Source: Escherichia coli (GTDB lineage Bacteria > Pseudomonadota > Gammaproteobacteria > Enterobacterales > Enterobacteriaceae). From it: a stretch of 64,000 bases of DNA. Under the pieces are notes generated by a model that worked only from the letters and a program-made list of their open reading frames with translations, had not been told where the DNA came from and did not search any database. The DNA lies in NCBI RefSeq assembly GCF_024502345.1, contig NZ_JALDNN010000001.1; one strand, 5' to 3'. A program made the translations under genes and the position numbers. Below, in pieces: positions 45,762-46,580 of the stretch (the first letter of the stretch is position 1; each line of letters starts with the position of its first letter).

Positions 45762-46580
45762 ATGCAGCTAAGAATTACCAGTCGAAAAAAACTCACCTCT
45801 CTATTATGCGCTCTTGGGCTAATTTCCATCGTTGCAATTTATCCGCGTCAGACGGTGAATTTTTTCTATTCGACAGCAGTTCAGATTACAGACTACATCC
45901 ATTTCTACGGTTATCGCCCGGTTAAATCTTTCGCTATTCGCATTCCTGCCAGTTACACCATTCACGGAATAGATGTTTCTCGCTGGCAGGAGCGGATCGA
46001 CTGGCAGCGGGTGGCAAAAATGCGCGACAACGGTATCCGCTTATAATTTGCTTTTATTAAGGCGACGGAAGGCGAAAAGCTGGTGTACCCGTATTTTTCG
46101 CGTAACTGGCAACTAAGCCGCGAAAATGGCCTGCTGCGCGGGGCGTATCATTATTTCTCCCCGTCGGTAGCAGCGCCGGTTCAGGCACGATTATTTCTGC
46201 AAACGGTGGATTTCTCACAAGGCGATTTCCCTGCGGTGCTGGACGTAGAAGAACGGGGAAAATTGTCGGCAAAAGAATTACGCAAGAGGGTAAGTCAGTG
46301 GCTAAAAATGGTCGAAAAAAGTACGGGGAAAAAGCCGATTATTTACTCAGGAGCCGTTTTTTATCACACCAATCTGGCGGGCTATTTCAATGAATATCCG
46401 TGGTGGGTAGCTCACTACTATCAACGTCGTCCGGACAATGACGGCATGGCCTGGCGCTTCTGGCAGCATTCCGACCGTGGACAGGTAGATGGCATCAATG
46501 GTCCGGTGGATTTTAATGTGTTTAATGGCACGGTGGAGGAGTTGCAGGCATTCGTTGATGGGATTAAAGAAACGCCTTAA
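45762..46580 (+). pseudogene. yegX: GH25 lysozyme-family gene with in-frame TAA
   Basis: ORFs 45753..46046 and 46083..46580 share a frame; TAA at 46044..46046 just before conserved FAFIKATEG motif; span 819 nt = 272 aa + stop. Confidence 0.75.

Follow-up and report, generated by a model that had tools for sequence, protein, structure and literature searches.

A premature ochre stop codon in the GH25 lysozyme-family gene yegX of a small Escherichia coli lineage

The stretch of DNA analysed here, referred to as the window, comprises 64,000 nucleotides from an E. coli genome (contig NZ_JALDNN010000001.1). It contains an allele of yegX, a non-essential gene for a membrane-anchored glycoside hydrolase of the GH25 (muramidase) type. 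An in-frame TAA codon interrupts this allele, which has very probably lost its function in a single lineage through a C>T nonsense change. This exchange would have hit the first base of codon 95 (Gln) and turned it into an ochre codon, in the simplest case from CAA to TAA. Ribosomes that begin at the native start would then terminate after 94 residues, nearly the whole GH25 barrel and the Asp161-x-Glu163 motif would be missing, and no YegX enzyme would be produced. The null allele would have been passed on vertically within a small E. coli cluster to which the window strain belongs, and the damaging-looking substitution D109Y would have been acquired on the same branch. We infer that the loss of yegX was neutral. 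Its significance is very small, as it concerns the correct pseudogene call for a gene with no known physiological role.

Reading frame and GH25 domain of the interrupted gene

The yegX frame is located on the plus strand and extends from the ATG at 45762 (MQLRITSRKK...) to the terminal TAA at 46578-46580. Its 819 nt correspond to 272 codons and a stop and equal the length of intact yegX in other genomes. Codon 95 of this frame, at 46044..46046, was read as TAA in place of the Gln codon (CAG or CAA) of intact alleles, and codons 96-104 immediately 3′ of it read FAFIKATEG. An earlier note on this DNA had described a stop directly before this motif, flanked by two ORFs that share one frame and together give 272 aa and a stop; both descriptions were confirmed (45762-46580, 819 nt). 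The upstream ORF had been listed from an alternative ATG at 45753, three codons 5′ of 45762, to 46046, and the same frame is then open as far as 46580. Public annotation starts yegX at 45762. The base after the premature TAA is T (TAAT), and the 31-mer over the stop contains CCGCTTATAATTTGCTTTT.

The neighbourhood of the locus is thiM-thiD-yegX-yegW-yegVUT of E. coli. A constitutive RpoD promoter 5′ of yegX has been reported in K-12 (PMC3946193); a scan for promoters and terminators between 45600 and 46700 of the window yielded nothing above shuffled expectation. The K-12 gene (b2102), an uncharacterised GH25 member, shares with the window gene the locus, the length of 819 nt, the GH25 domain and the anchor at the N-terminus, and its DNA is 97.4% identical. 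However, it is intact, whereas the window allele has TAA for Gln95 and Tyr for Asp109.

When Gln was restored at codon 95, the repaired 272-aa YegX matched Pfam PF01183 (GH25) with E = 1.2e-52 and 179 bits at a cut-off of 27 bits. The match spanned residues 70-245 and profile positions 1-180, i.e. the complete profile of 180 positions. Together with the RefSeq annotation, this bears out the assignment as the GH25-family gene yegX that the earlier note had made. The repaired protein could also be aligned end to end with the GH25 muramidases 2wag (1.5e-32), 4kru (1.4e-28) and cellosyl, 1jfx (1.5e-26). In the 1jfx alignment, Asp71 of YegX (GIDVS) was paired with Asp9, and Asp161 and Glu163 (LDVEE) with Asp98 and Glu100 of cellosyl, which we take to be the catalytic acidic residues of GH25. 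The Asp, the Asp-x-Glu and a FAFIKATEG-type motif are common to repaired YegX, cellosyl (1JFX), BaGH25c from B. anthracis (2WAG) and the C. perfringens autolysin (4KRU). The characterised GH25 muramidases are intact secreted, phage or autolysin enzymes, whereas the ORF in the window ends before 85% of the domain. The codons for D71, D161 and E163 are all present in the window gene, the latter two downstream of the stop.

The part that can be translated from the native start (45762..46043, plus strand) amounts to 94 aa. Residues 1-27 consist of a basic N-terminus and a subsequent hydrophobic stretch (LTSLLCALGLISIVAIY), which may be read as a signal anchor; they are followed by a linker and by the first strand of the GH25 domain, which contains Asp71. 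This fragment had no Pfam match. The stop removes positions ∼26 to 180 of the GH25 profile including the Asp161-x-Glu163 catalytic motif. Codons 96-272 with FAFIKATEG and LDVEE (46047..46577, plus strand) are thus orphaned, beyond the reach of ribosomes that begin at the native start. The window contains no uninterrupted frame for the whole domain and, because of this interruption, its yegX is not a functional GH25 member. Both the YegX protein and its muramidase activity would be absent from strains with this allele.

Alleles of yegX in complete E. coli genomes

With a 921-bp query, yegX was found in 5,424 of 5,426 complete E. coli genomes. An identity of at least 99% was reached in only four (MLI023K1, MLI023K2, PRO_A-1412-6M-A_ESBL and NCTC9064), all of them at 100%, and the next best genome had 98.8%. 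In all four, RefSeq/PGAP annotates a yegX pseudogene and gives "internal stop" as the reason; therefore, the stop allele is already known, as an ordinary pseudogene. The annotated pseudogenes in NZ_CP116913 (MLI023K1), NZ_CP116916, NZ_CM136169 and NZ_LR134315 (NCTC9064) match the window at 100% identity along 921 bp, which contain both the stop and D109Y, and the gene at 45762..46580 is likewise identical to the CDS flagged pseudo in MLI023K1, NCTC9064 and PRO_A-1412. A 63-mer centred on the stop was matched exactly in 4 of the 5,426 genomes. The matches that followed had two mismatches and, therefore, neither TAG nor CAA occurs between these flanks in any of the genomes. The orthologues do not have a natural gene boundary at this position: in 5,423 genomes the yegX alignment extended over 80% or more of the 819 nt. 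Judged by its orthologues and by its recurrence in other assemblies, the window gene would be classed as a pseudogene by nonsense mutation.

Twelve other full-length yegX alleles with 98.7% to 93.9% identity served as comparison sample. The alignment to intact alleles, named in the earlier note as a way to check the stop, gave Gln at codon 95 in all twelve, encoded by CAG in nine and by CAA in three (BL21, O157:H7 and 042). The window gene differs from the closest intact allele (DA33133) at 11 bases, namely two in codon 95 (46044 C>T and 46046 G>A), the one that causes D109Y (46086 G>T) and eight synonymous ones. Four bases were unique to the lineage within the sample: T at 46044, T at 46086 and two synonymous bases. 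Since CAA occurs in other alleles, only the C>T exchange at 46044 sets the stop codon of the window lineage apart, and the A at its third base is a synonymous polymorphism of the ordinary kind. The gene would most simply have been inactivated by one CAA>TAA transition. The route CAG>TAG>TAA needs as many steps as the one through CAA. None of the 5,426 complete genomes contained the CAA ancestor in this sequence context, and metagenome contigs scanned for the TAA allele or the CAA ancestor with these flanks (pattern GGTATCCGCTTAYAATTTGCTTTTATTAAGGCG, YAA) gave no matches. The point nonsense change claimed in the earlier note is thus supported, with a refinement. It is parsimonious and only the C>T exchange is unique; however, two bases differ from the nearest CAG alleles and the CAA intermediate was not found.

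The missense change D109Y (GAC>TAC) is located at 46086..46088 on the plus strand. Asp109 is invariant in the twelve sampled alleles and conserved in the three solved GH25 enzymes 2wag, 4kru and 1jfx. Among the 5,426 complete genomes, the exact 63-mer with D109Y was present only in the same four that carry the stop, to which it is therefore fully linked. The substitution is consistent with a dead gene. Frame decay beyond it was not seen, with two synonymous and two non-synonymous lineage-specific changes, which fits a recent inactivation and is no proof of relaxed constraint.

Selection on yegX, further losses and alternative readings

Among eleven intact yegX alleles, a pairwise dN/dS of ∼0.095 was obtained. 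Therefore, yegX is under purifying selection and normally functional in the species. It is nevertheless dispensable in the laboratory: in the reduced-genome strain DGF-298, the gene lies inside a deletion of 41.6 kb (PMC10652928), and it is found among the Keio-collection knockouts (PMC11502571, PMC12457515). The literature searched on YegX function held only tables of screens, deletions and mutations, and no biochemical or physiological study or phenotype.

A second null allele is defined by a 4-bp duplication (TTTATTAAG -> TTTATTTATTAAG) that shifts the frame at codons 98-100 and was found exactly in 276 of the 5,426 complete genomes. In L008 (NZ_CP086544.1 yegX), it is equivalent to window position ∼46053-46061. 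The strains with this allele include Ec-042-T0, AMA1167 and UK_Dog_Liverpool, their yegX is annotated as "frameshifted", and AMA1167 and UK_Dog_Liverpool presumably belong to ST410. The duplication is an independent inactivation within ∼15 nt of the window stop and also a PGAP pseudogene. It differs from the window allele in being a frameshift and not a nonsense change, in its CAG/D109 background and in its frequency (276 genomes versus 4). The 276 genomes are probably a single successful clone and would then represent one event. In WP2-S18-ESBL-08, yegX is interrupted by IS1. The remaining exceptions are a partial copy in one genome and the lack of any match in two. In total, a working yegX is missing in at least 5% of the complete genomes and ∼95% keep the intact gene, a pattern as expected for a useful but non-essential gene. 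Such recurrent null alleles are natural knockouts that can be used to study the role of the GH25 enzyme.

The at least three independent inactivations (nonsense change, 4-bp duplication in 276 genomes and IS1) could also point to adaptive loss, in which the inactivated membrane-anchored muramidase was selected convergently in several clones. This is improbable given that ∼95% of the genomes have an intact yegX under purifying selection (dN/dS ∼0.1), that the 276 genomes probably stand for one event, which may have spread by hitch-hiking, and that no phenotype is known in the literature searched. Moreover, drift predicts that a dispensable gene is lost a few times in a set of 5,426 genomes, and none of the data require an adaptive reading. 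We regard it as quite improbable that selection has convergently inactivated yegX in E. coli through these three types of lesion. If it were, the loss of a membrane-anchored muramidase would be advantageous in some gut or multidrug-resistant clones.

The two halves of the frame might alternatively be expressed as a split gene that keeps its function, with the anchored 94-aa fragment and a 165-aa fragment made by re-initiation. The sole nearby in-frame restart candidate after the stop is the GTG of codon 108 (46083..46085, plus strand), 37 nt past the stop and with GGAAGG ∼10 nt upstream, and the frame downstream is open as far as the native stop. However, the fragment that would start there covers only positions 36-180 of PF01183. 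It is devoid of the export signal, of Asp71 and of both initial barrel strands and has the D109Y exchange; the N-terminal fragment has no recognisable domain. The spacing between GGAAGG and the GTG also exceeds the Shine-Dalgarno optimum. The arrangement occurs in 4 of 5,426 genomes and hence is no conserved architecture, and a functional split gene is very unlikely.

Equally little probability is given to read-through or suppression, by which programmed recoding or a suppressor tRNA would maintain a low level of full-length YegX and for which no support was found. The sign of recoding that was looked for was not found, as the stop is not conserved in orthologues (absent from 5,422 of the 5,426 genomes) and no TAG or TAA variant with the same flanks occurs elsewhere. 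In addition, TAA followed by T is a strong terminator context and is reportedly regarded as the most efficient termination signal of E. coli, and the non-conservative exchange D109Y at a conserved Asp argues against a maintained function.

A sequencing or assembly error in an intact gene with CAA or CAG at codon 95 can practically be dismissed: single-base errors do occur in long-read assemblies and nothing specific speaks for one here, but the same 921 bp are found in four assemblies from three independent isolates and laboratories as well as in the window, which is a different genome, and therefore the stop is not a read error; moreover, the site is no homopolymer and the change is a substitution linked with other lineage-specific substitutions.

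Carrier lineage and surrounding chromosome region

NCTC9064 has the serotype O64:H19 and belongs to ST2952, which is a double-locus variant of ST655; the strain has been used as outgroup for O121:H19 STEC (PMC8767318). MLI023K1 and MLI023K2 are duplicates of a single ST8149 isolate that was obtained in Mali from the stool of a soldier (PMC10198576 and its supplement). PRO_A-1412 was isolated from faeces in Tanzania. The four carrier assemblies thus represent three independent isolates (Mali, Tanzania and the NCTC collection) with differing STs. Over 17 kb, the window was 99.9% identical to MLI023K1 and PRO_A-1412 and 99.4% to NCTC9064, and no other complete E. coli genome exceeded 98.3%. The window genome is none of the four carriers: outside the locus, it has additional IS elements, lacks part of yehI and contains a P2-like prophage. 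It is a further member of a small, rare cluster that includes ST2952 O64:H19, ST8149 and relatives.

The earlier note had raised the possibility that the SNP defines a known lineage. It does not define a major one, as it is confined to this small cluster (4 of 5,426 complete genomes); the stop allele marks a small, geographically spread and evidently old cluster and no major recognised clone. The stop SNP was also considered as a marker for O121:H19 (ST655) and rejected with only four carriers in the whole collection; because there are no more than these, any O121:H19 genomes in the collection are without the stop allele. At most, the pair of TAA and D109Y is a convenient marker for the rare ST2952 O64:H19/ST8149 cluster.

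Between the yegX-gat region (window 43200-60300) of this lineage and any other complete E. coli genome, the divergence amounts to at least 1.7%, and it stands despite the reported closeness of NCTC9064 (ST2952) to ST655 O121:H19. Window 1-21566 was 97.96% identical to NCTC9064, and window 1-24569 was 99.57% identical to MLI023K1. The divergence of the yegX-gat region and the drop in identity over 1-21566 suggest recombination tracts in this part of the chromosome, which could be due to the nearby O-antigen locus.

The yeh fimbrial operon of the window strain is disrupted twice. An IS1 element at 33929-34695 (InsA ORF 33984-34259 and InsB ORF 34178-34681) is inserted in the chaperone gene, and its flanks at 33920-34704 show the 9-bp target duplication CAGGGAAAC. 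The chaperone gene is intact, without IS1, in MLI023K1, PRO_A-1412 and NCTC9064. The second insertion is an IS5-family (IS903-like) element of ∼1,058 bp with 34-nt terminal inverted repeats at 36318-37376 in the fimbrial usher gene yehB; its transposase ORF of 322 aa matched NCBIfam NF033579 with E = 6e-107.

Compared with MLI023K1 and NCTC9064, yehI (DUF4132) lacks 1,415 bp at window ∼24559-24569, where the 11-bp repeat AACGCTGCCAG forms the junction of the deletion. The gene is already annotated as frameshifted in these two genomes. In the last part of the window (60344-64000), the left end of a P2-like prophage adjoins yegR. It comprises a tyrosine integrase (60423-61436) and an HTH repressor-like ORF (61552-61923), both on the minus strand, which are followed by cox, DUF5405 and replication-B-type genes according to similarity to annotated genomes. 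At the yegR site, the four closest genomes have no such prophage; its identity to prophages of unrelated E. coli is 99%.
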